Source of the DNA: an uncultured Pseudomonadota bacterium
Lineage (GTDB): Bacteria > Oederibacteriota > Muellerivitia > Muellerivitales > Muellerivitaceae
Direction: 5' to 3'
DNA: 64,000 nt
Assembly (NCBI GenBank): GCA_963836235.1
Contig: CAWIIP010000002.1
Coordinates: forward strand, 1,600,001 to 1,664,000
Shown here: in pieces, positions 20,773 to 61,816 of the stretch
Numbering within the stretch: the stretch's first letter is position 1
Layout of the letters: each line of letters starts with the position of its first letter
Notes under the pieces: model-generated
The model's database searches: none
What the model was told of the DNA's origin: nothing
Seen by the model: only the letters and a program-made list of their open reading frames with translations
Made by a program: the position numbers and the translations under genes

Positions 20773-20905
20773 TTGACTAATAAAACCCATGGGTAGATAA
20801 TCAATTTGGGCTGGATTTAAACCAGTTTCCTTCCGGAGTTGCCGCTCCCCCCTTTCTTTATTTCATGCTAAAATTCAGCTGAAAAACACCAGTTTTTGGA
20901 GCGGC
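20773..20905 (+). promoter_or_regulatory. Putative sigma70 promoter and structured 5' leader of the pilin cluster
   Basis: TTGACT-N17-GATAAT at 20773-20801. GCCGCTCC (20841-20848) is complementary to the RBS region GGAGCGGC (20898-20905). Confidence 0.4.
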
Positions 20906-20908
20906 GTC

Positions 20909-21901
20909 ATGGGTCATGCCTCGCGACAATCTAAGCTTTCACGATTCTCCAAAGCCTTTGGGCGGATATTGGGGGGGGTCTCCAAATCTCCTTCAAGACA
21001 TTCCTTATTCAAAATCAAAAATTCCCGTGGCTCGGCCCTGATGATGGCTTCCATTTTCATGCTGGTGGCGACGGTGCTCATTACCGTCGGTGTCAAGCTG
21101 GTCGCCAACGCTTCCCGGTCGGCTAAGGAAAAAGAACTTTATGTCGGCGAGGCCGAAAACGTCGCCCGCGCCGGGCTCATTGACGCGCTCGCTTGGTTCC
21201 GCCGGCAATCGGGCAACGGCGGTGTCGTCGCCGCTTATGAAGGTACGGCCTTACCAGGGCAAGGCTCCGTCACTTGGGCCACCAACCCCCAGCCCACGCC
21301 TCCCGCGGGCGCCGTATTTACCTACGTGGACCAACCTTTTGAGCCCGTCGGCAACACCAGCAATCCCCAAGTCGCTGACACCATCGACGCCTCCATCGGC
21401 CTCGTCGGCGAATATCCCTTGAGCGATCCGGTGACGGCCAATTGCCTTTATTGGGCCCGTTTCGAGGTGCCTATGCAGGGTTCCGGCACCCAGGTTACGA
21501 ACGCCGCGCACGACGTCACCGGGGAGCGCACCGGCAGTTACGTGAACGGCGACGGGTTGATTTGGTCCGTGACTTCGACGGGTTATGTTTATAAAAGGCT
21601 GATCCGAGTGAACAGTGGGGGAGAAACCGCCGTCGACCCCGCCGGCAACTGGGTAGTCCCCTATAACACCGTCACCAATCCCCCCAACTGTACTATTGTC
21701 GCCAAGGCCCAATTCACCACCGAGTTCCGAAAATTGGGCTTGAACCTTCCCGTACCCACTCCCGGCCCCACGGTGTATTCCTCGGGGCTTTACGTATACA
21801 ACGCGGGCCAATGCGTGACGTTGACTTCCAGCGAAAGCCTCCTGGATGGGGCGGTATCTGAAATCGATACCTTCGGGGTGATCGGGCTATCGAGTCCATA
21901 A
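20909..21901 (+). CDS. PilX/GspK-like minor pilin, N-terminal part
   Basis: Basic leader, G|SALMMASIFMLV hydrophobic helix without E5, 'A.NVARAGLIDA..W' PilX-N signature and 'VTSTGY' strand. Confidence 0.7.
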   Translation: MGHASRQSKLSRFSKAFGRILGGVSKSPSRHSLFKIKNSRGSALMMASIFMLVATVLITVGVKLVANASRSAKEKELYVGEAENVARAGLIDALAWFRRQSGNGGVVAAYEGTALPGQGSVTWATNPQPTPPAGAVFTYVDQPFEPVGNTSNPQVADTIDASIGLVGEYPLSDPVTANCLYWARFEVPMQGSGTQVTNAAHDVTGERTGSYVNGDGLIWSVTSTGYVYKRLIRVNSGGETAVDPAGNWVVPYNTVTNPPNCTIVAKAQFTTEFRKLGLNLPVPTPGPTVYSSGLYVYNAGQCVTLTSSESLLDGAVSEIDTFGVIGLSSP

Positions 21902-21963
21902 GGAAGCCGCCGAGCCGGTGGTTGTTCCACAAGAAGGGTTGAATTTTTCGAGGGAGTTGACAG

Positions 21964-23679
21964 ATGAGGGTTCGGGGTAAAAAAAATTTAGAAAGCGCCT
22001 TTGGCCAGGGTTTCCTGAAGCCATGGACCGCCCTTGTCCTGATTTTGTTTTTTCCGGCCCAAGGCTCCTTTGCCGCCCCCCCAACCTCCACACCAACCAA
22101 AACCCCCACCAGAACCATCACTCAAACCCCGACGAAAACCGCGTCCTTTACTCCGACCTTTACTCCCACCCAAACGGCCACCAATACTCCGACCAACACT
22201 ATTACCCAAACTTTAACGAACACCGCGACCAACACCACGACCGCTACGATTACCCAAACCTTAACGAAAACCGCGACTAATACCGCGACCAACACCACGA
22301 CCGCTACCATTACCCAAACCTTAACGAAAACCGCCACCAATACCCCCACCCCTACTTTTACCTTTACCCCGACCCTCACTCAAACGAACAGCACCACCAA
22401 CACCCCGACGAACACCACGACCGCTACCATTACCCAAACCTTGACGCAAACCGCCACTAAAACCACGACCGCTACCATCACCCAAACTTTAACGAACACC
22501 GCGACCCAAAGCCCAACGGGCACCGCTACCCCAACATTCACAAAAACCGCGACCTATACCATCACCCAAACCTTAACCAAAACCCCGACCGGCACCCCCA
22601 GCTTCAGCCCGACGACCACTTTCTCTTTCACCACGACCAACACCACCACGAATACTTTCACTCGTACAGCGACCTATACTTTCACCAATACCGCGACTTT
22701 CACCCCCACTAAAACTTGCACCTACACCGCGACATACACCTTAACCTATACCGCCACCAACACCCGAACCGCTACCCCCTCCTTTACCCCGACCAAAACG
22801 CCGACCTCAACTCGAACCTATACCCCCACCGCGACCGCCACCAATACCGTGTGCTTCGTTATTATTGGCGGGGTTGAAGTGGCCTGTACCAATACGCCAG
22901 GAATACCCACAAATACCTTCACCCCCTACATCACCCCCACCCCCACCATCACCCATACCCCGACCAATACCCGGACCTTCACCCTTACTCCCACCATCAC
23001 CAATACCCCGACTCCCTGTTACATCACCAGTGGCGGCGGAGTGAAAACCCTCTGTACTTGCAATGAGCCTCAAGGGGCCGATACGACCGACTTCGAGGGC
23101 GGGGTCAAATGCTTTGAAGGACCCGTTTCCCTCCTTTCCGCGAACAGCGTCTTTGGAATGTCCCTGGCCGACGTCAAAAACATCGCCGACTATATCGGCA
23201 GTTCCTCCAGCGGGCAGTCCGTCGTCCTGAATATCGCCTCCGATTGGAAACTATCCTATTTCGATGGGGACCTCACCTATGGCCCCGACCAACCCTATCC
23301 CTATACCACCCTGGGCGCCCCTAAAACCGACACCACCCCCGCCACCAGCGGGTTTGGGATCCTGGTCGTCAATGGCGACCTGACCCTGGAAGGGGCCAGT
23401 GGAAGCACCCTCCCCAGTTCCTGGGGCGGAGTCATTTTTTGCACCGGCAACATGTTCGTGGGGGACGGCTGCGCCATCAACGGGGCGGTCATTTTGGGAA
23501 CCCCCAATTACCATGGAGGGGCCAACTACGGAACCATCACCCTGAAGGGAAGCTCGGGAAATTTCGGGCAGGTCATCTACAGCCCCACCCTGGTGACGTC
23601 GGCTGAGGAACTGGTGGGCGTGTACCGGGAAGACATCAGTGAAACGAAGAAACTGCTGGCGATTCCCTTTTCCCAATAG
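21964..23679 (+). CDS. Secreted Thr-rich (TxT) stalk protein carrying a PilX-type C-terminal beta-helix
   Basis: Signal-like segment WTALVLILFFPAQGSFA|APP, then ~310 aa of Thr-rich repeats, then GILVVNGDLTL..WGGVIFCTGN..INGAVI..VIYSP. Confidence 0.65.
   Translation: MRVRGKKNLESAFGQGFLKPWTALVLILFFPAQGSFAAPPTSTPTKTPTRTITQTPTKTASFTPTFTPTQTATNTPTNTITQTLTNTATNTTTATITQTLTKTATNTATNTTTATITQTLTKTATNTPTPTFTFTPTLTQTNSTTNTPTNTTTATITQTLTQTATKTTTATITQTLTNTATQSPTGTATPTFTKTATYTITQTLTKTPTGTPSFSPTTTFSFTTTNTTTNTFTRTATYTFTNTATFTPTKTCTYTATYTLTYTATNTRTATPSFTPTKTPTSTRTYTPTATATNTVCFVIIGGVEVACTNTPGIPTNTFTPYITPTPTITHTPTNTRTFTLTPTITNTPTPCYITSGGGVKTLCTCNEPQGADTTDFEGGVKCFEGPVSLLSANSVFGMSLADVKNIADYIGSSSSGQSVVLNIASDWKLSYFDGDLTYGPDQPYPYTTLGAPKTDTTPATSGFGILVVNGDLTLEGASGSTLPSSWGGVIFCTGNMFVGDGCAINGAVILGTPNYHGGANYGTITLKGSSGNFGQVIYSPTLVTSAEELVGVYREDISETKKLLAIPFSQ
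22081..23018 (+). repeat. Coding imperfect tandem repeats (TITQTLT[N/K]TATNTTTA-type units)
   Basis: Recurring ATTACCCAAAC(C/T)TTAACGAA(A/C)ACCGC and AACACCACGACCGCTAC units. Extreme A/C strand bias. Confidence 0.9.
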
Positions 23680-23702
23680 GGAAAACCGAAGGGTTTAAAA
23701 AC

Positions 23703-26700
23703 ATGCGTATCAAAAAACTTTCCCAAGCCGGGTTCAGCCTGGTTGAACTGTTGATCGCGGTAGGCATCATGGCGGGCCTGGCCTCCACCGTGATGATGGC
23801 CCGGTCCTACATGGCCAAGCAGACGGTCGCCACCAGCGACAAGGCCTACGCCACGCAAAAGGCCATCCAAATGTTCGAGGAGCTCAAGGCCCTGGTGAAC
23901 GGCAGCGAGACCTCGATCAACCTTTTGGACAATTACAGCGACGGCACCGGCTACAACGCGGTCCTCACCACGGATAAAACCGTGGATACGGGCCTGGCTT
24001 CCGCCAATCCGGCGAATTCCCTGAGCGGAAACAAGCCCACCCAAAGCGGGGCTTGGCGCTATCTGCGGCAGATCCAGGTCAACCATTTGGGCAACGACGC
24101 CTTCACCCGCCAGATCATCATCAAGGTTTGGCTCTACCAGTCGGACACCAATCCCAACCTGCCCGGCACGCTGTTAAGCGAGGTGGGCGGCAACCTGAGG
24201 ACCATCGCCAGCACTTTCCCGCCGACGCAGGTCATGGACGTTTACGTGCTGGCCATCAACAACATCGCCGGCTGGTGGGCCCATGAGCCGGTTCTTTACC
24301 AGACCTTCCAGAGCATCATCAACAACATCCAAACCCGCAATCCGGGGCTGGAATTGCGGCCCCACTATATCACCCGCACTTCCTACGGCCGCGACAGCCA
24401 ATATCAGCCTTATATCAACATTTATCCTTATAACACCGACGGTAATAACGACGTCACCGGCGCCGCCGTCACCAACGGCACCACGGTCGGAAATTTCCCC
24501 TTCGTTTACATGTACCCCGGCTATACCCTCGAGGATACCGCCGACGGAAGCGTGAGCGACAGCTTTTTCGACCCCGGGTTGGAACAATCTCCGCCACTGG
24601 GAGTCTGCCTGGACGGGAATTTCAACGTGGGGGGCTCTTTCGAAAACACCGGCCTGCAATTCACCGGCTGCCCCAATTACGCCGTGGCGGACCAGTACAA
24701 CAACAGCATGCGCTACCCCGACGAGCTGGCCATGTACCAGGCCGTTACCGCCGCCGCCGCCGCCGACAACGCCTCGGGCGTCACGACCGCTTACCTTCCG
24801 GCCCAGGATTCGGTCACCGAAATCAGCTGGCGCATGCTGATGGAAGGCATGTTGGACCAGCCCGCCTCCTTCACCAACGCCATGGTCATCAACCTGCACG
24901 GGGAAAACCTGCCCCTGCCGCCCATGCGCAACTACTCGGACGCCGCCAAAGACCCAGGCAGTTTGGACCTCGCCGGCAACCCCGGTGTCCCCGCCAACAC
25001 CAACATCCGGGTGGTCACCCACCCACAAATGCTCTACTACCCTGGCGCCTCCTCGATCGCCACCAGCGTCGCGGTTACCTTGAATGTCTACTCTTATTAC
25101 GCCGGATTGGACGATATCTCCACTTTAGACACGCTTTATCCCCCGGCCAACGACCCGAAAACCGACATCAGCCTTTTCTTCCCGGACCTTACCACCGATA
25201 CCCAGGTTTTGGGGGTTACCGCCATCGTCGGCAACTCGAATACGGCCTCCAACGTGGCCCCGGCCACGGGTCCCGTCATTTATAACTACGACAAGTTCGC
25301 CGCCTTTCCCATCGCCCCCGGCACGGCCGGACTTTATTCCGGTTCCCTCGCGGATGGAACCAACATCACGGGCCAAGGCCCCGTTCAAGTGAGCGTTACC
25401 TATGTGGGGCCCAATAAGCAATTGCTGATCACGCTTTACAATTCGCGTTTGCGCTGTCCCAACGGCGAGGCCTCGGTTGGGGGGAATAACGCCGGCTTAT
25501 CCGCCCTGGACCGTTTATACGGCCTGGAATATATTCCCTGCAGTCCGGACATGAAAAAATTAACCAGCCCGGTTACCTTCACGGCTTCCGATTTGACCCT
25601 CTCCGCCGGCGCCCCCGCGGCCAAAAACACGGCCCGATGGCTGGTGAGCCTTTCCATGCCCATCACCTCGGCCTTTCCCAACGTCGCTCCCGGCGCGCCC
25701 TTAACCATCCAGAACGTCTCGGGAGTTTCCGTTTACACTTCCCCCCAGACTTTCACCGGCATCCACACCATCGAAACCCGCATCGGCGCCAATAATTACA
25801 CCAGCGATACCGTCAGCATCAACACCAGCACAGGCACCCCCGTCACCACCATCGTCGGCGCTCCCAGCGACCTTTCCCGAACCTATGTATGGACCGGCTG
25901 GTCTTCCATCTCAGCAAGCGGCGTCACCCAGGGTGTCTACCCGCCCACCACCGAACAATACCAGTTCCTGGGCGACCCCCGGCATGAACCCTACCTGGAC
26001 GTCAAAGTAGGGGGTATCAATAACGGACAGGCCGTCGTCATCCAGCCCAACGGATACAACTGGTGGTTCAAGAACGGGACCAGCGGGGGAGCGGCCCCCA
26101 ATATGTTCACCGACGGCTACAACGGATTCACCGCGGCGGGAAATACCAACGGCTGGTCGGGAAGCGACGCCACTTTTATCGATGTTCCCCGGTTCCATCA
26201 AATGATCCGGCAAGGGCTTTTAAACAGCACCAGCATCTGGACCACCATGAACGGCTATACCTATTACTATTTCGGCTTGGGAGGGGAATTCGGATCGGAC
26301 CAGCCGCCTTTCTCCCACGGCCTTACCATCAATTCCACGGTCTACAACACCACGTCCACGAGCGGGGTTACCCAGGCCTCGGAAATGGTCAATTGGAACA
26401 ACGCCCAGCTTTATAACGTCCATATTCCGGCCAACACGGTCAACACTTGGTACGCCAAAACCTGGCTGGGGGAGCTTTATCCCGACGGCATGGTCGCCGC
26501 CTGGAACACTTATGGAAACCTTCCCGTGGCCAACATTGGGGGGCCGACTTCCCTCACTTTTTACCGGCAGGATTACGCCAATCTTCCTACCGAAGTTTCC
26601 GCGACCATCTCCAACGAGTCCGGCCAATCCTTGAACGGGTTGGGACGCCTGCAAAGCAACCGGCTGGGCCCGAACGGCTGTTCGTCCTTTTACCAGGGCG

Positions 26701-27746
26701 CGACCAGTGGCGTCACGGCGAACGGAACCATGAACCATGATTCGGCCACCGATACCGACACCAGCAGCAATTTGGCCGTCTCCTGTTACAACATTTACGA
26801 GTATCCCCTGCCGTCCGACGTGGTCAACGCCAACAGTAACGGGCGTCCTTGGCACTTGAATGACAAAGGAAACAATCCCCCCCAATTTGGGACCGCGCCT
26901 TATAACACCTATAACACCCTGGCCATCCCCTCGGTCGGGGCGACCTCTCGCATTTTTTACACGACCAGCAATAACTCCCCGACGGACACGGGAACAGGGG
27001 TGGTCCAGATCACCAATACCAACGTGACCCCGAACCAGGTCGCCTATGTGGTGGAATCGGGGCTTTCCATTTCCGCCCAAGTGGGCACCTCCGACCTGGG
27101 CGAAACGGCCCTGGTGGCCATGCTCAGGACCTTTTTGGACGGCGGACTCCTGGCGGCTTCCGGAAGCCCCGGCCATGTTCGCCAGATTCCCCTGGTCGAG
27201 CTTTATACCGACAGCCCTTCCAACCAGTATTACCAACCCACCAGCATCGACCTCTTCGTGGATGGGGCGGTGACGACCGGAACCGCCGCCCCGGTCACGA
27301 CCACGGGCGGCGCCGTCACCAGTATCTATGTCGGGCCCACCAACAACGTTTGGTTCCGTTTTCCGGGACTCACCTCCACGACGGCCAATGTTTACACCGA
27401 GGAATATCCCGGCTATCCCACCCTTTCCAGCAGCACCTACGAGGAAACCAGCGGCGGGACAGCCCTTCCGCTGGAGATGAACTTTCTCTATTCCACCGAC
27501 AGCGGAAATACCTGGCTGTATATGAGCAGCAATCCTGCCTATAACGGGCAAGTCCATCAAAAGGGGATTTTAAATACAAACGTCAACGTGATGCAAACCT
27601 CCAATAGCTTTCCCTTTGCCTTCAACTGGACGGGCCCACCAGGCGGTTTTTCACAGGGTAATTTGTATTTTATGGTCGAAGCCTACCGGGAGGGCTATCC
27701 GCTGAATTATGCTTACCACGTCCTTACCGTTTCGGTGGATGAATGA
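23703..27746 (+). CDS. Giant (1347 aa) prepilin-type N-methylation protein, PilV/GspI-like N-terminus with large unknown C-terminal region
   Basis: AG|FSLVELLIAVGIMAGL class III signal peptide, followed by ~1150 aa of Thr/Ser/Asn/Gly-rich extracellular sequence. Confidence 0.85.
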   Translation: MRIKKLSQAGFSLVELLIAVGIMAGLASTVMMARSYMAKQTVATSDKAYATQKAIQMFEELKALVNGSETSINLLDNYSDGTGYNAVLTTDKTVDTGLASANPANSLSGNKPTQSGAWRYLRQIQVNHLGNDAFTRQIIIKVWLYQSDTNPNLPGTLLSEVGGNLRTIASTFPPTQVMDVYVLAINNIAGWWAHEPVLYQTFQSIINNIQTRNPGLELRPHYITRTSYGRDSQYQPYINIYPYNTDGNNDVTGAAVTNGTTVGNFPFVYMYPGYTLEDTADGSVSDSFFDPGLEQSPPLGVCLDGNFNVGGSFENTGLQFTGCPNYAVADQYNNSMRYPDELAMYQAVTAAAAADNASGVTTAYLPAQDSVTEISWRMLMEGMLDQPASFTNAMVINLHGENLPLPPMRNYSDAAKDPGSLDLAGNPGVPANTNIRVVTHPQMLYYPGASSIATSVAVTLNVYSYYAGLDDISTLDTLYPPANDPKTDISLFFPDLTTDTQVLGVTAIVGNSNTASNVAPATGPVIYNYDKFAAFPIAPGTAGLYSGSLADGTNITGQGPVQVSVTYVGPNKQLLITLYNSRLRCPNGEASVGGNNAGLSALDRLYGLEYIPCSPDMKKLTSPVTFTASDLTLSAGAPAAKNTARWLVSLSMPITSAFPNVAPGAPLTIQNVSGVSVYTSPQTFTGIHTIETRIGANNYTSDTVSINTSTGTPVTTIVGAPSDLSRTYVWTGWSSISASGVTQGVYPPTTEQYQFLGDPRHEPYLDVKVGGINNGQAVVIQPNGYNWWFKNGTSGGAAPNMFTDGYNGFTAAGNTNGWSGSDATFIDVPRFHQMIRQGLLNSTSIWTTMNGYTYYYFGLGGEFGSDQPPFSHGLTINSTVYNTTSTSGVTQASEMVNWNNAQLYNVHIPANTVNTWYAKTWLGELYPDGMVAAWNTYGNLPVANIGGPTSLTFYRQDYANLPTEVSATISNESGQSLNGLGRLQSNRLGPNGCSSFYQGATSGVTANGTMNHDSATDTDTSSNLAVSCYNIYEYPLPSDVVNANSNGRPWHLNDKGNNPPQFGTAPYNTYNTLAIPSVGATSRIFYTTSNNSPTDTGTGVVQITNTNVTPNQVAYVVESGLSISAQVGTSDLGETALVAMLRTFLDGGLLAASGSPGHVRQIPLVELYTDSPSNQYYQPTSIDLFVDGAVTTGTAAPVTTTGGAVTSIYVGPTNNVWFRFPGLTSTTANVYTEEYPGYPTLSSSTYEETSGGTALPLEMNFLYSTDSGNTWLYMSSNPAYNGQVHQKGILNTNVNVMQTSNSFPFAFNWTGPPGGFSQGNLYFMVEAYREGYPLNYAYHVLTVSVDE

Positions 27747-27753
27747 GGCGGAT

Positions 27754-28992
27754 ATGACAAAAAAAAGAAAAGTTTTAAGTTTTAAATCCTTCCTTTCGGC
27801 TTTCGGAGGCTTTTCCCGCCGGAAGCCCATAAACCCCTGTAACCCAGAACCCAAAACTCAGAACTCAAAACTGAATGAGAAGGGCTGGACTCTGATCGAG
27901 CTGATGCTGGTCACGGCTTTGATCGCCATCATCACCCCGGCCATCACCTACCTTTTCAGCAAAGTCCAGCAGGGCATGGCCGCCGACGAAATGCACCTCC
28001 AACTGCAGTCCCTGAACGAGCAAACCATGCTTCGCATGCACGAAAAGCTGATCACCGGCCGCCATTTATTCCAGGGGGACTCCTCGGGTGTTTCCTATTT
28101 GGGATGCGTGACATTAGGCATGTCGTCCAACACCAAGAGCCTCTACCCGATCCTTACCGGCACCCAGCTGCCATCGGATTTTCCGGCCAGCCTTACCGCG
28201 TCCTTTTCCCCCTCCACGATCCTCGCGCCCTATTACGGCAACAGCATCCTCGTGGGTGGCTACGATACCCCCCAAACTTTCGGCACCAAAATTTATAACG
28301 CCCCTGCCACCGCCACCAGCACCGCCTCGATCCCGGTCATATATAGCAATGGGACTCTCGCCACGCAAATCATCGACCTTTACCGCTTTACCTACTATTA
28401 CCTGACGGCCAATAATCCCAGAACCCTGAGGGGCGTGCCGAGCTACGGGCTGGTGGAATGGCAGAGCGTCCAATTCGCCGATATGAACGAGATCAATGAA
28501 ATTACCGATCCCACCCTCCTTACCTGCGTCATCATGTGGCTGGAAACTCCTGGCAATGTTTCCCCCAATGACCCCAGCTATGCTGTGACCTGGGGCTGGG
28601 ATCCCACCCAGGCCGATCCTCAATCCTATCCCAGCCTTAATCAGGCGGCTTTTTACACCTTCAGCGGAGGCAACGCCAGTACGGCGAATTGGCCTGTCAC
28701 CATCCAAGAAGGAACTGTCACCTACTTGACCCATACTTCCTCCGGCCTCCTGAGCAACGGCTTTTTTTACGGGATCAGCCCCAACACCTCGCTTTGGGGC
28801 GGAACCCCGGACTCGGTGCCCGAATATGGGGTGAGCTCGGGCAGTTTTCCGGGCGGGTTCGAGACGGGAATTTCTGGAACCTCGGGAGGAACGGAAGTGA
28901 TGATTCGGTCCCTCCTGGTGGCGCAAGGTTCCGCCCCCCGGGTGGTTTGGAACGACCAGACGATGGTCAATAACGTGCGTAATATCTGGTAA
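27754..28992 (+). CDS. PilW/GspJ-like minor pilin
   Basis: KG|WTLIELMLVTALIAII (E5 present, Trp at +1). ATG 27754 follows GAGG. Confidence 0.8.
   Translation: MTKKRKVLSFKSFLSAFGGFSRRKPINPCNPEPKTQNSKLNEKGWTLIELMLVTALIAIITPAITYLFSKVQQGMAADEMHLQLQSLNEQTMLRMHEKLITGRHLFQGDSSGVSYLGCVTLGMSSNTKSLYPILTGTQLPSDFPASLTASFSPSTILAPYYGNSILVGGYDTPQTFGTKIYNAPATATSTASIPVIYSNGTLATQIIDLYRFTYYYLTANNPRTLRGVPSYGLVEWQSVQFADMNEINEITDPTLLTCVIMWLETPGNVSPNDPSYAVTWGWDPTQADPQSYPSLNQAAFYTFSGGNASTANWPVTIQEGTVTYLTHTSSGLLSNGFFYGISPNTSLWGGTPDSVPEYGVSSGSFPGGFETGISGTSGGTEVMIRSLLVAQGSAPRVVWNDQTMVNNVRNIW
27771..27875. repeat. Inverted heptamer-repeat element inside pilin leader
   Basis: AGTTTTA x2 ... AACCCAG AACCCAA AACTCAG AACTCAA AACTGAA. 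Confidence 0.7.
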
Positions 28993-29031
28993 GGGGCTTG
29001 AAAGCCCCGCCGGTAAACCTCAAAAGAAATT

Positions 29032-29139
29032 TGAACCACGAAGGCACGAAGGGCACCAAGAAAAGCAAAAAAACCGGACCTGTTTTCTAAAAAGATTCTT
29101 ACTGTTTTCTTTTGTCGTTCTTAGTGCCCTTGTGGTTCA
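29032..29139. repeat. Palindromic MITE/REP-like element, family 1
   Basis: TGAACCACGAAGGCAC...GTGCCCTTGTGGTTCA terminal inverted repeats with ~9-nt subrepeats. Related copy at 61241-61352. Confidence 0.7.
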
Positions 29140-29169
29140 TCAGGCCTTTTTGGGGTGTAAACCCTTTTC

Positions 29170-29198
29170 TTGATTAGCCCTAAAAAGAAGGATATTCT
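29170..29198 (+). promoter_or_regulatory. Possible promoter for the FN3/CTD gene (near-leaderless)
   Basis: TTGATT-N17-TATTCT ending 6 nt before ATG 29205. Confidence 0.3.
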
Positions 29199-29204
29199 TA
29201 TTAA

Positions 29205-32200
29205 ATGGATTCAAAACCGATGGTAAAACTTCCACCTAATCCTATTCGTTCATCCTTGTTTTCGTCTTTTCTCCTAGCCGCTTTTCTCCTGAGCCCTCTC
29301 CAAGCTTTGGCCGTCGACACCTTTAATTATGTGGTTCCCACCTCCCCTTACGCGGGAGTGACCTATCAAACGAACAGCCCGGTGACTTTTAACGTCCAGG
29401 CCCTGAGCGGGGCGTCCGTGGATAATGGTTTCAATGACGTGGTGACGGTGGGCCTCTACAACACCGCCACGAGCCAGTTGTCCGACCCCACAGCCGTCTT
29501 TGTTCCCAGCGGCCACGGGCCCGTCATCGGAGCGACCGCCCCCATGACCTTTCAAAGCGGGATATTGAATTTTGGCGTCACCCTGACCGCCGGGTCCAAT
29601 TCCATGCAGGTCAGCATTCAGGACGCCTCCATCACCGGTTCCACCGCCACTTATCCGGGAACCATGGGGAATGTGGGGGGGCCGGGTTATAACGTGGAAG
29701 GCTATTTCCAGCAGTATTTCCTGGCCACTTCCAGCGGAACCAGCATCCCCGCCTTTTATTCGCCCCTTCCCACCCCGGGCCCGACGGACCTGCTCCTGAC
29801 CAGCCCGGTCACGAATAACGCCAACTACACCTCGGTGACAGTGATCTCCGACATCGGCCTCACCAGCGCCGCCGCGGTGAGCAACTCCCTTTGTTTCGCG
29901 GTAACGGGAGTGACGGGGGGATACGCGGGGTTGAACGCGGGGGTATCGGTTGATTTACAGGCTTACCGGTCCAATCTCACCTCATCCGCCCCGGTTAGTT
30001 TTGAGGTGATCCTGGATTACAACGGAACTTTGACGGATTACAACACCCCGGACCTCAGCCAGGACACGGTTTATTCCGGGTCCATTCCCAACCTCGGCAG
30101 CAACAGCGCGGCGCCCAGCAGCTTTTTGACCAATCTTTCCACCGTCACCGGAATTTCCCCCCCGGCTTTCATGACCAACGGCCAGGTGATCCTGCGCTTT
30201 TGGACGGGCGCCGCCTCCACCAACACGGTCAATCTCGAGTGGAGCGACTACGAGGGCCAGGGATTTCTTTCTTCCATTATCGTTCCTTATTCCAACAGCA
30301 ACGTCCAGCCGGTGACGGCCGCCATGAGCCCCCCGGTCGTCCTGGACAGCGCCACCAACATTCCCGTGACCTATACCATCAACAACCAATATTCCTCGCC
30401 CATCAGCTACCTGACCATTCAAATTCCCACCAACAATCCCTCGGGTTCGGGAACACCCTTTAGCGTCAGCCTGCCCGGCTCCCTGGCCAGCCTTCCCGGC
30501 AGCAGCCTCGGCGTGCTCCAGGCCACCAATTCCGCCCCCGGGGCCATTACCTTGATTTCCGGGACGACTCCGATCGCAGTGGATCAGGTGATCCAAATTC
30601 CACTGACCATCACCTGTTCCAGCCAATCCAACGCCTGGGCTTTCCCCCTTCAGACAGTTTTATCCAACGCCGATATTAGCGTGCCTTCGGTTTCCGGCGG
30701 GGCGGTCATCACTTCCGAAGCGCCTCCGCCGGTTCCAGGGTCCTTCACGGCCTCGGCGGCCGCTTACATCACCCTCGGCGGCGGCAATGTGGCCCTCAAC
30801 TGGGGGCAAGTGACCCTTGATGGGGCCCTTGGTTATGTGCTCACGCGAAGCCCGGTGGGAGGCCTCTTCGCCAACTCCGTGACCCTTCCCAATGGGATGG
30901 TCGTGGCCAACGCGGTGACTCTTACCCCCAACAGCACCCTCAGTTACGTCGATTCCACGGCGGCCAACCTGACGGCTTATAACTATACCTTGACGGCCTT
31001 TAACGCCGTGGCCCAGTCGACGGTGCCAGCGACTGCCGGGCCGGTAACTCCCTATGCCGACCCAGGGCCTCCATCCGCCTTACAGGCCCTGACCGGCGGA
31101 GCGACAATCCAACTCAACTGGGCGACCCCCGTCGCCGTGCCCGGTTCCTATCCCGTGACGGGGTACCAAATTTACCGGGGAACCTCGCCGGGAGGCGAAA
31201 GCTCGACGCCCGTGGCCCAAGTGGGCCTGGTGACGACCTACAATGACCCGGGTTTAATCGCGGGAACCACTTATTACTATTACCTCTCCAGCATGGACAA
31301 TCAGTATAGCGGCGGAGCGACCTTTGGCCCCCACGACAGCGGGCCTTCCGCCCCCGTCACCGGATTCCCCAACGGCTGGCCTCCTACGGGGCTTACCCCC
31401 AGCCTGGTTTCACCCAGCATCCCCACGATTGGTTTAAGCTGGACGGCCCCCGATTCCACCCTTCTTTTGAACGGTCCGGTGACGAATTACCTGATTTACA
31501 AGGTTTTGGCTCCGGGAGTTCCGATTTATTACGCGTCGGTAGGCAGTAACGCCACGACCTTCGCGGACAGCACCGGCTTGGCCCAGGGGAACAGTTACAG
31601 CTACCAGGTGGCGGCCATCGACAGCGCGGGGGTGACTTCCAATCTTTCGAACCTGGCGACCCAGTCGGTCGGGCCCTCGGCGCCATTAGGCCTCAGTGCT
31701 ATCCCTTCCGCCAGCGGTGTTACCCTGACCTGGAATGCCAACCCGGGAACCCAAGGCGTCACCCAATATGTGGTCTATCAAAACGGTGTTTCCATTACCG
31801 CCACGGCGGGGGTCAGCTTCCTGGTTCCCTCCGCTACCGCCGTTCAGGGCCAAAACGACGGCTATACCTTGGCCGCCATCGGGGGAGGAGTTACCTCGCC
31901 TCTGTCCTTGGCCGTATCCTCGGCCTTGTTTCCCGTGGGGGAGACGGGCTTTACGGTCGCGGCGGCGCCCACCCCGAACACGACGGTCAACCTAAGCTGG
32001 GCCCCGCTGATCGCGGGTAACGCCAACGCGGTCAGCTATAACCTTTACCGGAACACCACCAACAGCTACCCCGCCGGGGCGGTGGCCGTGGCTTTGGGGA
32101 TACCCGTGACGACAGCGGGGAACCCGGTGACCTCCACCCAAGACCTGGGGCTGACGCCAGGAACCATCTATTATTATTTCCTCCAGGCCGTGAACCCCTA

Positions 32201-35200
32201 CGGCGTGGGCTCGGTGACCGAACAAGCCCTTCAAATCCCGCCCAATCCGCCGGGAACCCCGACGGCCACCTCTTCCACCAGCGCCGTGAACCTGTCCTGG
32301 ACAGCCATCGCCGGCCAGAACGTCTCCCAATACACCATCTACCGCTCCCAATTGCCTGCCGGGAGCCCAGCGGTGGTGGGGACGGCCACGCCCGGAACGG
32401 CTTCCAGCTTCACCGACAGCGGCCCCCTGGCCCAGGGTGTCACCTATGTTTACGACCTGACGGCCACCAACCCCGGAGGGGGACCGGGCATACCGGGAGG
32501 GGAAAGCGGGCCTTCCGGTTTCGTCACCTGGGGCTTGGCGCCCGCGGCTTCCACCGGCCTGGCCATTTCGGGGATCAGTACCGGCAATGCCATCACGCTG
32601 GCTTGGAACAATGTCACGGCTACCGACCCTAACGCCACGGCGGTCTCGCTGTTCGTCAACGCCAACTCCGCCGTCACGACGGGAGCTGTCCTTACGCCCA
32701 TTTCACCCGTCTCAAGCCTTTCTGTTACCGACAGCGGAGTTTTTAATAGCAGTGTCACGGGAGAAAGCCCGGATACCACCTATAACTATTGGCTTCAAGT
32801 CACCGCGCCTTTCGGTACCAGCGCTTTGGAAGGGCCCATCGCCCAATTGACCTATCCCGCCGCCGTCAATTTGATGCCGGTAACCCTGGGCACGGATGGA
32901 GTTTCCCGGATTTTGGAATGGAACGTCCTTCCGGCGGACGTGACGGGCTATACCGTTGACCAAGTTAACGGGGGAGTCACCCAAACCCAAGCTTATCCGG
33001 CCAACGCGGCGGGAGCCCCCGTCACCTTGGCCCTCGCCACCCAGCCGGGACTTACCTATACCTATTATGTCACGGCGACCAACGCCACCGGGGTCGGGCC
33101 GATTTCCAACGGCCAAACTTTCAGCAGCCTTCCCTCAGCCCCCGTCAGCGTGACGGCGGTTTCGGGAACCAGCAACACGGGAGTCACGGTTGTCCTTTCC
33201 TGGTCGGATCCGGTTTCCGCCTCCCAAGGCGTCACCGCCTATACGGTTTACAAGGCCACGGCCCTGGCCGGGCCTTATACGGCGGCGGTTTCAGGGCTTA
33301 CCAGCTTCACTTATTCCGACTCCACCGATTCGGGCAGCGTTTCTTATTTCTATATCCTCGCGGCGGACGACAACATGGGCCAGGAAAGCTTCCTTTCCAC
33401 CGCCAACGCGGTGGCGGTCACGGCTTTCGCCCTGCCCAACCCGCCGGGGACGCCCACCGCCGTTCCCTCCAACGGGGCGGTTTCCCTTAATTGGACCACG
33501 GGATCACAGACCACTTATTCCGTTTCCAGTTACGATATCAGCCGGGTGAACGCGGGGGTTACCACGGTCATTCCCACGGCGGGAATAACTTACAACGACA
33601 CCGCGGTAGTGAACGGCTTCACTTATGTTTATTTCCTTCAAGCGGTGGATAGCCAAGGCAACCTGAGCCCCGCGACAGCTTCGGTAACCGTCACGCCCTT
33701 GAACACACCGGGCCCGCCGCAAAACCTGGGAGTCGGGGCGGGGGACCAGGAACTATTATTGACCTGGAAAGCGGGGACGCCGGGGACCTTGCCTATCGGC
33801 AGTTACTTGATCTACCGGATTACCTCCGGGCCCGTAACTTCAGCGCCCATTTCGGTCACGGCCACCTCGACGAGCTATTTGGATACGGGACTGACGGACG
33901 GGACCTCCTATAGCTATTACATGCAATCGGTCGATTCAACGGGGGTCACCACGGGCCTGGATATCAGCCCTCCTTCGGCCCTGGTGTCCCAAACCCCCGT
34001 TTTAGGGGACGTTAACCCGGCTAGCAATTTGGCCGCCAACGCGGGGGCCGCGCAGGTGATCCTCACTTGGACCGATTCGGTGACCGTGATTGGCGGGGCC
34101 GACGTCACTAGTTACAACGTTTATCGGAGCACTTCGCCCACCTTCGCCAGCCCCGTGACCTTGGCGCCTGTGCCGGTGTCGGGTCCGACCCAGGCTGTCA
34201 CCGACACGGGTCTGACCAACGGCACTCCTTATTATTATTACGTGACCGCCGCCGCCCTCAGCAATGTGAGCGCCAGCAGCGCCACAGTATTCGGGATTCC
34301 TTCGATTCCCCCCGCCGCCCCCACAACCTTAGTCGTCACCCCGGGTAACCAGCAGGTTCTCATTGACTGGCCCGCCTCGGCGCCAGTGAGCGGATCCCTG
34401 CCTATTTCCTTCTATATAGTGACCATCAACGGGGCCCCGGTTACGGTCCCCGCGACCCAAACCTGGTATTTGGATTCGGGCTTGACCAATCCAGAGGCTG
34501 TTACCGTCAGCATCCTGGCCGTGGATACCACGGGTCTGGCCAGTGGAAACCACGAGAGCACGGTCGTGGGACCCATTACGGTCAATACCAGCGCGTCGGA
34601 CCTGAACCCGCCCACGAGCTTAACCGCCTCCCTCTCAGGAACGACGGCCATCAAGCTTACTTGGGTCGCGCCCGCGAACGAGGCCAGTTACCCGGTCACA
34701 GCCTATAACATCTACCGGGCGGGTAATTTTATTACCGCGGTGGGGAGCCCCCTGGTGACCCTGGCCAACACCACCCCCGTCACTTCTTATGTGGACAGCG
34801 GCTTGACCCCGGGTACTACCTATTATTATGTCATCCAGGCGGTTTACTCCTCCGGGCCTTCCGGCCCTGGCCCATTGGACAGCCCCAATTCCAACAACGC
34901 CACGGCGACGGCTCCCGCCCCGACCGCGGGCGTGCCGCCAGTCACTGTGGGGGTTATGGCTTTCGACGCCAATATTCTGAAACCCCTGACCGGCCAGCAA
35001 CTGGGGATTTATTTCATGGCCCCCAACAGCGGGCCTGTGGAAATTGACATTTATAATATCTCGGGCCATCCCATCCGGGCCCTTTACGCCACCGCCATCG
35101 CCGACGTGGCCGTTAACCTGGCCTGGGACGGCAAGGACCGCGACGGCAGTTGGGCCGCCTCCGGGGTTTACTTGATTGAAATTAAGGCTCCGGGCCTTCA

Positions 35201-35231
35201 CCAGATCAAGAAAGTGCTGGTGGTTAAGTAA
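29205..35231 (+). CDS. 2008-aa secreted fibronectin type III repeat protein with C-terminal FlgD-Ig/T9SS CTD-like domain
   Basis: Sec signal (..LQALA|VD), ~14 FN3 units (P..P..L....L.W....Y.IYR...Y.D..L..G..Y.Y...A), and tail IDIYNISGHPIRAL...WDGKDRDG...SGVYLI..K..KKVLVVK. Confidence 0.88.
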   Translation: MDSKPMVKLPPNPIRSSLFSSFLLAAFLLSPLQALAVDTFNYVVPTSPYAGVTYQTNSPVTFNVQALSGASVDNGFNDVVTVGLYNTATSQLSDPTAVFVPSGHGPVIGATAPMTFQSGILNFGVTLTAGSNSMQVSIQDASITGSTATYPGTMGNVGGPGYNVEGYFQQYFLATSSGTSIPAFYSPLPTPGPTDLLLTSPVTNNANYTSVTVISDIGLTSAAAVSNSLCFAVTGVTGGYAGLNAGVSVDLQAYRSNLTSSAPVSFEVILDYNGTLTDYNTPDLSQDTVYSGSIPNLGSNSAAPSSFLTNLSTVTGISPPAFMTNGQVILRFWTGAASTNTVNLEWSDYEGQGFLSSIIVPYSNSNVQPVTAAMSPPVVLDSATNIPVTYTINNQYSSPISYLTIQIPTNNPSGSGTPFSVSLPGSLASLPGSSLGVLQATNSAPGAITLISGTTPIAVDQVIQIPLTITCSSQSNAWAFPLQTVLSNADISVPSVSGGAVITSEAPPPVPGSFTASAAAYITLGGGNVALNWGQVTLDGALGYVLTRSPVGGLFANSVTLPNGMVVANAVTLTPNSTLSYVDSTAANLTAYNYTLTAFNAVAQSTVPATAGPVTPYADPGPPSALQALTGGATIQLNWATPVAVPGSYPVTGYQIYRGTSPGGESSTPVAQVGLVTTYNDPGLIAGTTYYYYLSSMDNQYSGGATFGPHDSGPSAPVTGFPNGWPPTGLTPSLVSPSIPTIGLSWTAPDSTLLLNGPVTNYLIYKVLAPGVPIYYASVGSNATTFADSTGLAQGNSYSYQVAAIDSAGVTSNLSNLATQSVGPSAPLGLSAIPSASGVTLTWNANPGTQGVTQYVVYQNGVSITATAGVSFLVPSATAVQGQNDGYTLAAIGGGVTSPLSLAVSSALFPVGETGFTVAAAPTPNTTVNLSWAPLIAGNANAVSYNLYRNTTNSYPAGAVAVALGIPVTTAGNPVTSTQDLGLTPGTIYYYFLQAVNPYGVGSVTEQALQIPPNPPGTPTATSSTSAVNLSWTAIAGQNVSQYTIYRSQLPAGSPAVVGTATPGTASSFTDSGPLAQGVTYVYDLTATNPGGGPGIPGGESGPSGFVTWGLAPAASTGLAISGISTGNAITLAWNNVTATDPNATAVSLFVNANSAVTTGAVLTPISPVSSLSVTDSGVFNSSVTGESPDTTYNYWLQVTAPFGTSALEGPIAQLTYPAAVNLMPVTLGTDGVSRILEWNVLPADVTGYTVDQVNGGVTQTQAYPANAAGAPVTLALATQPGLTYTYYVTATNATGVGPISNGQTFSSLPSAPVSVTAVSGTSNTGVTVVLSWSDPVSASQGVTAYTVYKATALAGPYTAAVSGLTSFTYSDSTDSGSVSYFYILAADDNMGQESFLSTANAVAVTAFALPNPPGTPTAVPSNGAVSLNWTTGSQTTYSVSSYDISRVNAGVTTVIPTAGITYNDTAVVNGFTYVYFLQAVDSQGNLSPATASVTVTPLNTPGPPQNLGVGAGDQELLLTWKAGTPGTLPIGSYLIYRITSGPVTSAPISVTATSTSYLDTGLTDGTSYSYYMQSVDSTGVTTGLDISPPSALVSQTPVLGDVNPASNLAANAGAAQVILTWTDSVTVIGGADVTSYNVYRSTSPTFASPVTLAPVPVSGPTQAVTDTGLTNGTPYYYYVTAAALSNVSASSATVFGIPSIPPAAPTTLVVTPGNQQVLIDWPASAPVSGSLPISFYIVTINGAPVTVPATQTWYLDSGLTNPEAVTVSILAVDTTGLASGNHESTVVGPITVNTSASDLNPPTSLTASLSGTTAIKLTWVAPANEASYPVTAYNIYRAGNFITAVGSPLVTLANTTPVTSYVDSGLTPGTTYYYVIQAVYSSGPSGPGPLDSPNSNNATATAPAPTAGVPPVTVGVMAFDANILKPLTGQQLGIYFMAPNSGPVEIDIYNISGHPIRALYATAIADVAVNLAWDGKDRDGSWAASGVYLIEIKAPGLHQIKKVLVVK

Positions 35232-37168
35232 TGAACGACCAAAAAAGTTCTGAGTTCTTAGTTTTGAGTTCTAAGTTAAAGAGAATTTTCAATTTTGAGG
35301 TGCAAATTGAAAATTTCATTAACTTAACACTTAACACTCAAAACTTAAAACTCGCCACACAACGATTATTCGCGGTTAACCTGTTCATCCTTGTTTTCTG
35401 CACGGTGGGCGCGGTGCGGGCCCAACAGCTCACCAGCGGCGCCGATTTTCTCACCATCGATAGTGGCGCGCGAAGCGAGGGCATGGGTGGGGCCTTTACC
35501 GCTATCGCGGATGACGTGACGGCGCTCACCTGGAACCCGGCGGGATTGGCCCTTTTAAGCCGCCCCCAAGCGGGCTACCTGCACATGCTTTACTTGAGCA
35601 ACATCGGCTACAACTTCGGCGGGGTGGCGGTGCCCCTGAGCGCCGGGGAAGACACCTTCGGGCTTGGCGCTGGGATCGTCAACCTGGGAACCGGCAGTTT
35701 CGACAGCACTTTGGGGCTGGCCCCCGCGGTTTCCGCCGGGGACAACGCCTTTTTACTTTCCTTCGCTTACCGGGTGAAAAGCATCGTTTCTTTCGGGGTG
35801 ACGGGAAAATATATCCTACGCGATCTCGCGGGATATAACGCCAGCGCTTTCGGAGGGGACGCGGGCGTCCTCTTAACCCCGGGGGACCGCGTGCGTATCG
35901 GGCTGGGTGTTTTTAATTTCGGCCAGCAGGTGCAGTTCATTTCCGCCGCCGACCCCCTGCCCCTCAGCGGCCGGTTGGGGCTGGCCTGGAAGGTACTCGA
36001 CGTTCCCCACAATAGCCTGACGCTTGCCGCCGATAACGGCTGGCAGTTCGGAAGTCAAACCTACACCGGCGCGGCCGGGGCCGAATATTGGTACGACCAA
36101 ACCCTAGCCCTGCGGGCGGGTTTCACGGGCGACTCCTACCAACAGCATCCCACCGCCGGTGTCGGGATCAATGTGGACCCGGTGGAGTTCGATTACGCCT
36201 TTTCGCCCCAGGGCACCCTGGGCGACACCCACCGCTTCTCCCTCGTCCTGAATTTCGGCCCGGAGGCCATGGAAGGGTTAATGGCCCCCACGGGCTTCAG
36301 CGCCCTTCCCTCGGACGGATCCATCTCCCTCCATTGGAAGCCGGTCCCCTCCAACGCGGTTGTGGGTTATAACATTTACGTGAAGAAGCCCAACAGTGAA
36401 AACCTGGTGCTGGTCACCAAAAGGCCCTTGGGTGTCGGCGAGTTCTCGGTCCGGTTGAACCACCTAGTGAACGGGCAGAATTACACTTTTGGAATCGTCT
36501 CGGTCAGCGCGGCGGGGCGCGAAAGCTCCCTGGCGACCCTGGCCACGGCGCCGGAAGCGGCGGCCGTCCCGCCCGCGCCGATCCTGCAGGCCCCCACGGG
36601 GTTCAAGGCGACGGCCACGGCGGAAGGGTTCAACCTCACCTGGGACAAAGCGCTTTCCACCGACGTGACGGGTTCTTACCTTTACATCGCCGACGATATG
36701 GGCAAGCCGGTGAGAAAATTATCGCCCAACCTGATCACGGACAACATCGTGGTCCTTAAAAAAGCAAACCCCGAAAAAACCTACCACTTCCTCTTGACCG
36801 CCGTGAATAAGGCCGGAAGCGAGAGCGTGGCGGCACCCCTGACCGTGAATTTCACGGACCTGAAAAAAGCCATGATGGCCGCCTTGCTGCCGCCGCCCGC
36901 CCACCTGACGCTTCAGGTGAACGGCGCCAAGGTGAATTTGAGCTGGGATAACGCGGGGGCGGGGATGAAATACAACGTTTACGTGTCCCACGACGGGGCC
37001 AGCTTCAAGCTTTTAACCCCCATCGGAACCGACAAAACTCAAGCCGTGCTGGGCCCCCTCAAGGCCGATACCGCCTATTATTTCGGCGTGACCACCCTGA
37101 CGCCCGACGGCAAGGAAAGCGATAGGGCCGTCCAGCCGCTTCCAACTCCAACTGCCGCCACTAAATAG
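35231..37168 (+). CDS. PorV/PorQ (UPF0164) family outer-membrane barrel fused to three FN3-like domains
   Basis: GADFLTIDSGARSEGMGGAFTAIADDVTALTWNPAGLA, GAEYW..LALRAG and DYAF..GTLGDTHRFSL motifs. TAATG coupling to the upstream gene. Confidence 0.85.
   Translation: MNDQKSSEFLVLSSKLKRIFNFEVQIENFINLTLNTQNLKLATQRLFAVNLFILVFCTVGAVRAQQLTSGADFLTIDSGARSEGMGGAFTAIADDVTALTWNPAGLALLSRPQAGYLHMLYLSNIGYNFGGVAVPLSAGEDTFGLGAGIVNLGTGSFDSTLGLAPAVSAGDNAFLLSFAYRVKSIVSFGVTGKYILRDLAGYNASAFGGDAGVLLTPGDRVRIGLGVFNFGQQVQFISAADPLPLSGRLGLAWKVLDVPHNSLTLAADNGWQFGSQTYTGAAGAEYWYDQTLALRAGFTGDSYQQHPTAGVGINVDPVEFDYAFSPQGTLGDTHRFSLVLNFGPEAMEGLMAPTGFSALPSDGSISLHWKPVPSNAVVGYNIYVKKPNSENLVLVTKRPLGVGEFSVRLNHLVNGQNYTFGIVSVSAAGRESSLATLATAPEAAAVPPAPILQAPTGFKATATAEGFNLTWDKALSTDVTGSYLYIADDMGKPVRKLSPNLITDNIVVLKKANPEKTYHFLLTAVNKAGSESVAAPLTVNFTDLKKAMMAALLPPPAHLTLQVNGAKVNLSWDNAGAGMKYNVYVSHDGASFKLLTPIGTDKTQAVLGPLKADTAYYFGVTTLTPDGKESDRAVQPLPTPTAATK
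35246..35353. repeat. Inverted heptamer-repeat hairpin inside the PorV-like leader
   Basis: AGTTCTG AGTTCTT AGTTTTG AGTTCTA AGTTAAA, inner AATTTTCAATTT/AAATTGAAAATT stem, then AACTTAA CACTTAA CACTCAA AACTTAA AACTC. Confidence 0.8.
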
Positions 37169-61676: not shown

Positions 61677-61816
61677 AGCCTTTATTATTCAAAGGATAAT
61701 CCCCCGCCGTAAGCCTTGTTTTATTCAATAAACTAAACCGGAAAAATAAGATAAACTTGAACCGGGTCGAGCTTTCCTTGTCGGGAAAGCTTTTATGTCA
61801 TGGGGGGAGAGAAGCT

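Follow-up and report, generated by a model that had tools for sequence, protein, structure and literature searches.

When minor-pilin-like genes and genes related to the T9SS (type 9 secretion system) stand in one co-oriented row, do they encode one surface machine or two? The question is raised by a 16-kb stretch (positions 20909-37168) of a 64,000-nucleotide (nt) piece of DNA from an uncultured bacterium, hereafter the window. A sequence-only reading of this stretch had described a PilX-like protein in two open reading frames (ORFs), a giant pilin of 1347 amino acids (aa) and a 427-aa pilin, named PilV-like and PilW-like, a 2008-aa protein of fibronectin type III (FN3) repeats with a T9SS-like C-terminal domain (CTD), and a 645-aa PorV-like barrel fused to FN3 domains. 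It had proposed that the pilin set, as a filament tip complex, is functionally linked to a CTD/PorV display pathway. All six ORFs were recovered at the positions listed in Table 1, co-oriented on the plus strand, and their arrangement is not due to chance, being syntenic in 9 of 20 relatives' loci. We conclude that the stretch probably does not encode a single machine but two surface modules that lie side by side and are transcribed separately: a pilin block (module A, 20909-28992) and an FN3/PorV pair (module B, 29205-37168). The genome holding the window comprises 3.97 Mb in 5 contigs and was scored 99.4% complete. We refer to its group as FCPU426, because the closest public relatives of the window's genes are titled candidate division FCPU426.

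The pilin block and the FN3/PorV pair are separable

Gene order was compared in 20 relatives' loci, each centered on the giant pilin. The pilin block was present in all 20 (partial in the most distant). The FN3/PorV pair followed it in only 9 (L031-L034, L038, L039, L043, L044, and L046). In another 6 (L035-L037, L042, L045, and L050) the pair was cleanly absent; the cyclase gene stood directly after the pilin genes, and the exonuclease III (exoIII) and cyclase flanks were the same. In 3 more (L040, L041, and L048) the pair was absent within 9 to 11 kb downstream. A contig end prevents a judgment for L047 and L049, leaving 18 informative loci, half of them without the pair. Unlinking in relatives had been named beforehand as the outcome that would speak against a functional link, and the pair proved unlinked; conservation of the pilin block itself held throughout.

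We mapped the presence of the pair on a quick IQ-TREE phylogeny of 19 giant pilins, from which L042 and L048 were left out as fragmented. The label requires five changes, at least four of them forced by starred branches, and random shuffling gave labels clustered to a similar degree (193 and 205 of 500). In five of five genomes without the pair, the best barrel matches were 31 to 39% identical to the barrel of the window, i.e., paralogues, compared with 48 to 76% for orthologues.

Two observations concern genomes that lack the pair. One genome, G048, holds, about 160 kb from its pilin block, a frame (C11:206386-207936, minus strand) that shares 38% identity with the PorV-FN3 protein over residues 51 to 576. 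It contains two stop codons (one TGA and one TAG) and is possibly a paralogue in decay. In two relatives of one genus, a different PorV-family paralogue of 28% identity lies a few kb past the pilin block and convergent with it (L035:12468-13886, minus strand; L041:5936-7267, plus strand).

Within each module the genes abut or overlap; between the last pilin gene and the FN3 gene there are usually 200 to 500 nt. When eight of these intergenic regions were aligned, the only conserved block was TTGATT, 17 nt, TATTCT, recognizable in five to six of the eight. In the window this motif occupies 29171-29199 and scores 8/12, below the threshold of the promoter scanner. The internal promoter that had been suggested before the FN3 gene finds its counterpart in a conserved promoter-like motif at the proposed site.

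The comparison was also made from the side of the barrel. We checked its 80 best relatives for prepilin motifs in flanks of up to 10 kb. As a positive control, the three orthologous loci with enough upstream flank all showed the pilin motif. Among 75 nonorthologous barrel loci, one had a prepilin motif nearby, and it was on the opposite strand.

The pilin block extends far beyond the pair. Within the phylum, the giant pilin was found in 30 of 99 genomes (24 of 30 in the window's family). A scan of one genome per species gave 243 confirmed relatives from many phyla, aligned over giant-pilin residues ~5 to 650. From these, 79 loci were kept, 17 of which were removed as FCPU426 orthologues (L203-L217, L219, and L225). 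The titles of the remaining 62 are Elusimicrobia, Thermoanaerobaculia/Acidobacteriota, Planctomycetota, Eisenbacteria, and others. We scored these loci with hidden Markov models (HMMs) of four parts: the PilX-like protein, the N-terminal and C-terminal halves of the giant pilin, and the 427-aa-type pilin. All four parts were present in 57 of the 62 loci, in the same order and on one strand in 55 of the 57. In 44 loci the downstream sequence reached 5 kb or more, and not one of them showed a PorV-type barrel or CTD-type tail. The pilin block is thus ancient, self-contained, and widespread. The proposed functional link to CTD/PorV display found no support in these comparisons: the block stands alone in 9 of 18 informative relatives, and barrel and CTD are missing beside it in all 44 loci elsewhere.

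In six of the Planctomycetota and Thermoanaerobaculia loci (L221, L243, L248, L250, L263, and L281), an ORF of ~1230 to 1535 aa without an assigned family directly follows the 427-aa-type pilin. Standing where PilY1 would, it may encode a tip-associated partner.

The FN3 giant and its PorV-like barrel

The N-terminus of the 2008-aa protein reads by eye as a signal peptide, and its fn3 repeats score 109.5 bits. At residues 1934 to 1995 FlgD_ig (PF13860) matches with 32.7 bits (cut-off, 27), and at residues 1937 to 2006 TIGR04183 reaches 19.8 bits, less than its cut-off of 23. Because TIGR04183 is under its cut-off while FlgD_ig passes, we call the tail CTD-like and not a TIGR04183 member. The PorU model, too, recognizes the tail, through its CTD end. 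The tail's earlier description as FlgD-Ig/T9SS-CTD-like can stand.

The 645-aa protein matches PorV_fam (NF033709) with 163.4 bits (cut-off, 90) over residues 68 to 342 and model positions 1 to 326; three fn3 domains follow. It falls below the equivalog cut-offs for PorV and PorQ (NF033710 and NF033711), with 62.9 versus 250 bits for PorV, 75.3 versus 220 for PorQ, and 70.5 versus 325 for PorV2. Toluene_X matches weakly (21.5 bits), and UPF0164 scores 31.5 bits. In a profile search of the PDB, the sole match at an E value of ≤0.01 was PorV of Flavobacterium johnsoniae (6h3i_F; E, 5.6e-11). Neither PorP_SprF nor a type B CTD family matched the barrel or the tail at an E value of ≤0.1. If the barrel has the even-stranded FadL/PorV topology, its three FN3 domains are presumably periplasmic. 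Recent exchange of FN3 domains between barrel and cargo was considered and rejected; there was no sign of it, the domains being generically alike (27% identity).

The barrel (287 residues) and the tail of the FN3 giant (100 residues) were modeled as a complex, each with an alignment of 10 rows. The model scored 0.93, compared with 0.02 for the best of three controls. In the calibration at this level, 116 of 157 solved complexes scored as high, as did 2 of 215 mismatched pairs. Contacts agreed by at least 97% between runs, and the predicted local distance difference test score (pLDDT) of the partner was at least 94. The FN3 gene and the barrel gene overlap (position 35231 is shared) and are inherited together. 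That the FN3 giant has its own PorV-like barrel, as the sequence-only reading held, is therefore supported; the contact between tail and barrel is a prediction of the model.

Cargo-barrel pairs are a repeated unit

The count of CTD proteins and PorV paralogues that had been suggested gave 45 FlgD_ig-type tails and 21 PorV_fam ORFs in the genome. The PorU model (NF033707) matched 37 proteins, only at its C-terminal CTD positions. A tail lay on the same strand within 2.1 kb of 12 of the 21 barrels. In 8 of 11 pairs examined, the cargo stop codon was no more than 151 nt from the barrel start or overlapped it, and in 10 of the 11 the tail was at the very C-terminus of the cargo. At least seven further tight cargo-barrel pairs exist, none of which adjoins a prepilin gene. 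Similarity matrices of tails and of barrels were correlated (Pearson, 0.73; Spearman, 0.33), and 1 of 5000 permutations gave a correlation as high.

The same unit appears outside this genome. We inspected 77 loci, from many phyla, that hold the best relatives of the barrel. In 47, the ORF immediately upstream on the same strand has a tail matching a CTD HMM built from the window's genome; 11 of 383 other ORF tails match it.

Two PorV-family barrels carry the FlgD_ig/CTD-like domain in cis, 3' of the barrel in the same ORF (genome G000, C4:87761-89962 and C1:~161604-162791, both on the plus strand); the frames are 733 aa and 793 aa long.

T9SS components of the genome

An ORF of 2028 aa on another contig matches the SprA/Sov model TIGR04189 with 226.6 bits (equivalog cut-off, 200), and among 60 high-quality genomes of the phylum, 58 have SprA-like ORFs of about 2000 aa. 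With an SprA/Sov translocon elsewhere in the genome, the cargo would therefore have an export route.

The GldK, GldL, GldM, and GldN models (TIGR03525, TIGR03513, TIGR03517, and TIGR03523) and PF12081 (GldM_1st) had no match in the 99.4%-complete genome, and GldM was found in none of the 60 high-quality genomes of the phylum. As a positive control, 26 genomes were sampled from the phylum to which a Bacteroidetes-labelled metagenome-assembled genome (MAG) belongs, and GldM matched 6 of them; it matched none of five named non-Bacteroidia MAGs (Ignavibacteriota, Bacteroidetes-labelled, Elusimicrobiota, and Zixibacteria). Among the motor and ring models only GldM had a positive control, and the absences are those of models tuned to Bacteroidota; because the GldM model is narrow (6 of 26 and 0 of 5 controls), divergent Gld homologues could escape detection. 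For the PorU sortase, NF033707 matches in the genome span only model positions ~960 to 1095, which are the CTD. The C25 peptidase family PF01364 had no match in the genome, with the controls silent too, and no PorZ body was detected in it. The view that the system differs from a canonical T9SS agrees with these results, GldKLMN and PorU being undetected in a genome that has SprA. Family scans likewise found no ATPase, secretin, or SprA in the window, as had been noted.

In the vicinity of the 2028-aa sprA-like gene (genome G000, contig C1; L051:2870-13709, minus strand), a LytTR two-component pair precedes the gene and a 1545-aa fn3 protein follows it, whose last ~65 residues are weakly PorZ-CTD-like (19.4 bits); no PorK/L/M/N-like gene is nearby.

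For FCPU426, Elusimicrobia, and other non-Bacteroidota phyla, we found no published description of T9SS or PorV. Two FCPU426 papers, in the parts available, are silent on pili and on type 9 secretion in the group (PMC10434106 and PMC7031533), and the type 9 literature, to the extent consulted, describes the system as confined to Bacteroidota. In the accessible portions of the reports, type A CTDs are bound by PorV loops inside SprA (PMC10994853), type B cargo is carried and anchored by cognate PorP/SprF barrels (PMC9143113 and PMC12618676), and PorZ is retained by PorQ, with the idea of "cognate PorV-like barrels" voiced in the same report (PMC10202324).

The pilin block

Both the 1347-aa and the 427-aa proteins carry a prepilin motif. 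TIGR02532 scored 17.8 and 16.6 bits, respectively, above its cut-off of 16.3, and PF07963 scored 19.8 and 16.8 bits, below its cut-off of 21.2; the genome-wide prepilin motif scan recovered both. PF07963 was matched by 14 of 16 orthologues of the 427-aa pilin. These orthologues align from about residue 38 to 57 onward, and the true start of the gene is probably later than 27709, judging from this alignment.

The two PilX-like ORFs are two parts of one gene, which is a single ORF of 438 to 652 aa in 11 of the 20 relatives' loci. In alignments, ORF1 (330 aa) covers the first ~330 residues of the single-ORF homologues, whose C-terminal ~200 residues pair with the last ~200 of ORF2 (571 aa). In the window, ORF2 has acquired a ~370-aa Thr/Pro-rich insert and an N-terminus that is signal-like. 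Several relatives share the split form. We considered the split or fused state as a correlate of the FN3/PorV pair and rejected it, as the states do not track the pair. Neither ORF matched a Pfam or NCBIfam family, and ORF1 had no PilX_N match at an E value of ≤0.1. PilX_N (PF14341) was matched weakly by 3 of 14 members of the PilX-like family (best E, 0.0037).

The names PilV and PilW found no support. The window's pilins scored 13 to 23 bits with equivalog models whose cut-offs are 52 to 80 (PilV, 13.3 versus 52.2; GspJ, 13.7 versus 64.85; GspH, 22.9 versus 80; the PilW cut-off was likewise not reached), and these matches cover the N-terminal helix only. The AlphaFold2 (AF2) model of giant-pilin residues 1 to 690 has a helix at 13 to 67 and a β-sheet at 120 to 183, with a mean pLDDT of 56; that of the C-terminal half has a mean pLDDT of 52.0. 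With the poor model of the N-terminal half, Foldseek returned nothing at an E value of ≤0.001; the weak pilin rows, each with an E value of 0.08, were PilB of Streptococcus sanguinis (7ba2_A) and 9a1f_R from the Xcp pseudopilus. PDB profile searches with the PilX-like family and both giant-pilin halves found nothing beyond the pilin N-terminal helix, and a protein atlas search gave pilin-like leads only, all of them below 0.9. No characterized family was found for the three-gene block in the family and PDB searches.

The rest of the pilus apparatus is encoded elsewhere. A type IVa core cluster on the same contig comprises PilB, PilT, PilC, PilA, PilM, PilN, PilO, and the PilQ secretin and has no minor pilin. 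A second cluster has GspE, GspF, and a secretin with three pseudopilins, and a prepilin peptidase is present (Peptidase_A24, 70 bits). The genome-wide motif scan found only eight credible prepilins, two of them in the pilin block. The PilY1 domain PF05567 had no match in the genome, and the search was equally silent in 14 control genomes. Most likely, the block is the priming and tip complex of a type IVa pilus. The giant pilin would probably be a tip adhesin in place of PilY1, which is a guess on our part.

Two other pilin genes were noted. A third prepilin gene of the window, of the PilA/GspG-like major-pilin type (61757-62278, plus strand; 173 aa; TIGR02532, 38.5 bits), lies just 3' of the Nuo (complex I) operon and distant from the pilus machinery. 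A stand-alone 190-aa paralogue of the giant-pilin head, 45% identical over residues 3 to 165, lies between housekeeping genes (G000 contig C3:34543-35115, minus strand); its prepilin motif is degenerate, and similar short paralogues occur in at least seven relatives.

Proposed mechanism and alternatives

Module A would be the priming and tip complex of a type IVa pilus whose core genes sit elsewhere on the contig, with the giant pilin standing in for PilY1 as the tip adhesin. The FN3 giant would be exported by Sec; at the SprA/Sov translocon, its own PorV/PorQ-family barrel would bind its C-terminal tail with the extracellular face. The protein would then stay on the cell surface held by the barrel, as PorZ is by PorQ and SprB by SprF; such retention is probable because no PorU-type sortase was detected. 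The analysis shows to which families the proteins belong, that the two are paired, and a predicted contact of tail and barrel; we infer the export route and the anchoring. The neighborhood of the two modules would go back to a single insertion: within one FCPU426 family, an ancestor acquired the cassette beside its pilin block, and repeated losses would have followed.

Several points weigh against this scheme. The orthologous FN3/PorV pair is seen only beside the pilin block, in 10 of 10 occurrences including the window and across at least six genera; descent from one insertion explains this, and co-function would explain it equally. Separate transcription of the two modules is read from the motif and the size of the gap. 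An SprA route would here lack the known motor and sortase, and passage of the cargo through SprA is itself deduced. Because PorV-CTD complexes have already been solved, and the 10-row alignments were self-made, the model score of 0.93 may reflect memory of, or likeness to, those complexes rather than binding by the copy in the window. One four-member subfamily accounts for most of the tail-barrel correlation, which therefore indicates that cassettes duplicate as units, not that tails and barrels have been proven to co-evolve. For the giant pilin, a tip adhesin only by guess, the AF2 models are poor (mean pLDDT of 52 and 56).

An adhesion island is one alternative. The modules would keep separate export routes and serve one process under co-regulation, e.g., first contact by the pilus and then locking by the FN3 adhesin. 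All genes are co-oriented, the modules have remained neighbors in 9 of 20 relatives' loci from at least six genera with 48 to 76% barrel identity, and in five of five genomes that lack the pair at the locus the orthologous pair is found nowhere else. We nevertheless consider such an island unlikely, since the pair was gained or lost at least four times while the pilin block stayed, the FN3 gene has a separate conserved promoter-like motif, barrel and CTD are missing from all 44 pilin-block loci of other phyla, and the only prepilin motif near 75 nonorthologous barrels is on the opposite strand. The barrel might instead be a FadL-like uptake channel and the FN3 giant its substrate-capturing partner, in a SusD-like logic. 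The PorV/PorQ family does belong with FadL-type barrels, as the Toluene_X (weak, 21.5 bits) and UPF0164 (31.5 bits) matches recall. The best family is PorV_fam at 163.4 bits, however, the sole PDB sequence match is the PorV of an SprA complex, the tail encoded upstream is CTD-like and was modeled onto the barrel, and the cassette has no TonB receptor or transporter gene; an uptake role is distinctly improbable.

Two further alternatives give the filament work to do in secretion. A pilin piston or tip could hand CTD cargo to the PorV-like barrel, replacing the missing PorLM/KN motor. No GldK/L/M/N was found in the genome, and GldM was absent from 60 of 60 genomes of the phylum though its model matched 6 of 26 controls. 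We give this pseudopilus-driven export hardly any credence: at least seven tight pairs and about 32 further CTD-tailed proteins have no adjoining pilin genes, SprA is present in the genome, the pilin block occurs in phyla and loci that have no cassette, and genomes without the pair keep the pilin block. A broader version, which we regard as a long shot, is that FCPU426 and allied phyla have a motor-less type-9-like path (SprA plus one PorV-like carrier per cargo, with neither PorLM/KN nor PorU) in which a type IV filament powers or scaffolds the adhesin. If this were true, the pilus-tip genes and the cassette would have been kept together in at least six genera because the filament, and not GldLM, pulls carrier and cargo off SprA.

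We retain the reading of two neighboring modules, and a hybrid pilus/T9SS machine is probably not real; a tempting and misleading reading of the locus is thereby removed. What it leaves is a three-gene minor-pilin block with a pilin of 1200 to 1350 aa, in an order conserved in FCPU426, Elusimicrobia, Acidobacteriota, and Planctomycetota, and a near-complete genome in which many cassettes of a cargo and its own PorV barrel occur with SprA and without a detectable motor or sortase. This raises the question of how CTD cargo is energized and anchored without PorLM and PorU.

Features of the locus

The features are collected in Table 1. The promoter-like site 5' of the pilin block is a candidate only, because the promoter and terminator scan of the region found such sites no more numerous than shuffles lead one to expect. 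The locus is flanked by an exonuclease III-type gene and an adenylate cyclase gene, and the remaining window holds housekeeping genes, among them the Nuo operon and the genes for 6PGD and an ABC transporter. Between 22000 and 36000 the G+C fraction rises to 0.56 to 0.62 and the GC skew is strongly negative (down to -0.32). The region coincides with the stretches coding for Thr/Pro-rich and FN3 sequences, and the composition looks like one of codons and amino acids rather than a clear sign of foreign origin.

Table 1. Features of the 16-kb stretch and its 5' side (positions are those of the window)
Feature	Position	Strand	Remarks
Sigma-70-like promoter candidate 5' of the pilin block	20773..20801	+	TTGACT, 17 nt, GATAAT; 10/12 matches, the region's best
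PilX-like protein, N-terminal part, 330 aa	20909-21901	+	Hydrophobic N-terminal anchor segment
PilX-like protein, C-terminal part, 571 aa	21964-23679	+	Signal-like N-terminus and ~370-aa Thr/Pro-rich insert
Giant prepilin-type minor pilin, 1347 aa	23703-27746	+	N_methyl/TIGR02532 motif at residues 7-30
Prepilin-type minor pilin, 427 aa	27709-28992	+	N-methyl motif at residues 56-75; mature part ~370 aa
GC-rich hairpin directly 3' of the last pilin stop codon	28995-29010	+	No T-run; read directly, absent from the terminator-scan list
Conserved promoter-like motif just 5' of the FN3 gene	29171..29199	+	TTGATT, 17 nt, TATTCT
Secreted FN3-repeat protein, 2008 aa	29205-35231	+	FlgD_ig/T9SS-CTD-like tail (residues ~1915-2008)
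PorV/PorQ-family outer-membrane barrel with three C-terminal FN3 domains, 645 aa	35231-37168	+	Barrel at residues ~60-346

Comparison with known systems

The pilin block resembles FimU-PilVWX-PilY1 of Pseudomonas and GspHIJK of the type II secretion system in its prepilin-type N-termini and in forming a cluster away from the genes for the major pilin and the motor. Here, too, one member has no classical motif and is PilX/GspK-like. The block differs in having three genes, not four or five, and no PilY1 was found in the genome by a search whose control was silent. At 1200 to 1350 aa, the giant pilin is far larger than described minor pilins; as a large pilin with grafted domains it is similar to the modular pilin PilB of S. 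sanguinis, to which the Foldseek match is weak (E, 0.08).

For the pair, the translocon of reference is SprA/Sov-PorV of F. johnsoniae (PDB 6h3i, 8gl6, and others), of which this genome has an equivalog-level match to SprA and, in the barrel of the window, a profile match to PorV (6h3i_F). As in type A CTDs, the tail is a C-terminal domain of the β-sandwich type ending in a Lys-rich motif. The modeled tail-barrel contact agrees with the PorV-CTD mode described in the available part of the published account (PMC10994853) in general terms only. Bacteroidota have one general PorV, whereas this genome has 21 paralogues and no detected GldLM/KN motor.

In the type B CTD/PorP-SprF systems (SprB-SprF of F. 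johnsoniae and PG1035-PorP of Porphyromonas gingivalis), a cargo gene is directly followed by the gene for its own barrel, as here, and there are several such pairs per genome. The barrel is proposed to take the cargo from the translocon and to keep it on the surface (PMC9143113 and PMC12618676). Those systems belong to Bacteroidota and the host of the window to candidate division FCPU426; here the barrel is of the PorV/PorQ family (163 bits), the tail is FlgD_ig/type-A-like, and there are three extra FN3 domains.

PorU-PorV and PorZ-PorQ of the P. gingivalis attachment complex are single-copy parts of the secretion machine, and to our knowledge they are not encoded as adjacent pairs. Their partners also differ from those seen here, which are giant adhesin-like cargo proteins in at least eight adjacent pairs, with the PorU and PorZ bodies undetected. 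What is shared is the tether: an uncleaved CTD on the same barrel family holds the protein, according to the part of the report consulted (PMC10202324). By analogy, the logic of the cassette appears to match that of PorZ-PorQ, PorU-PorV, and type B/PorP-SprF, here with PorV/PorQ-family barrels and type-A-like tails outside Bacteroidota.

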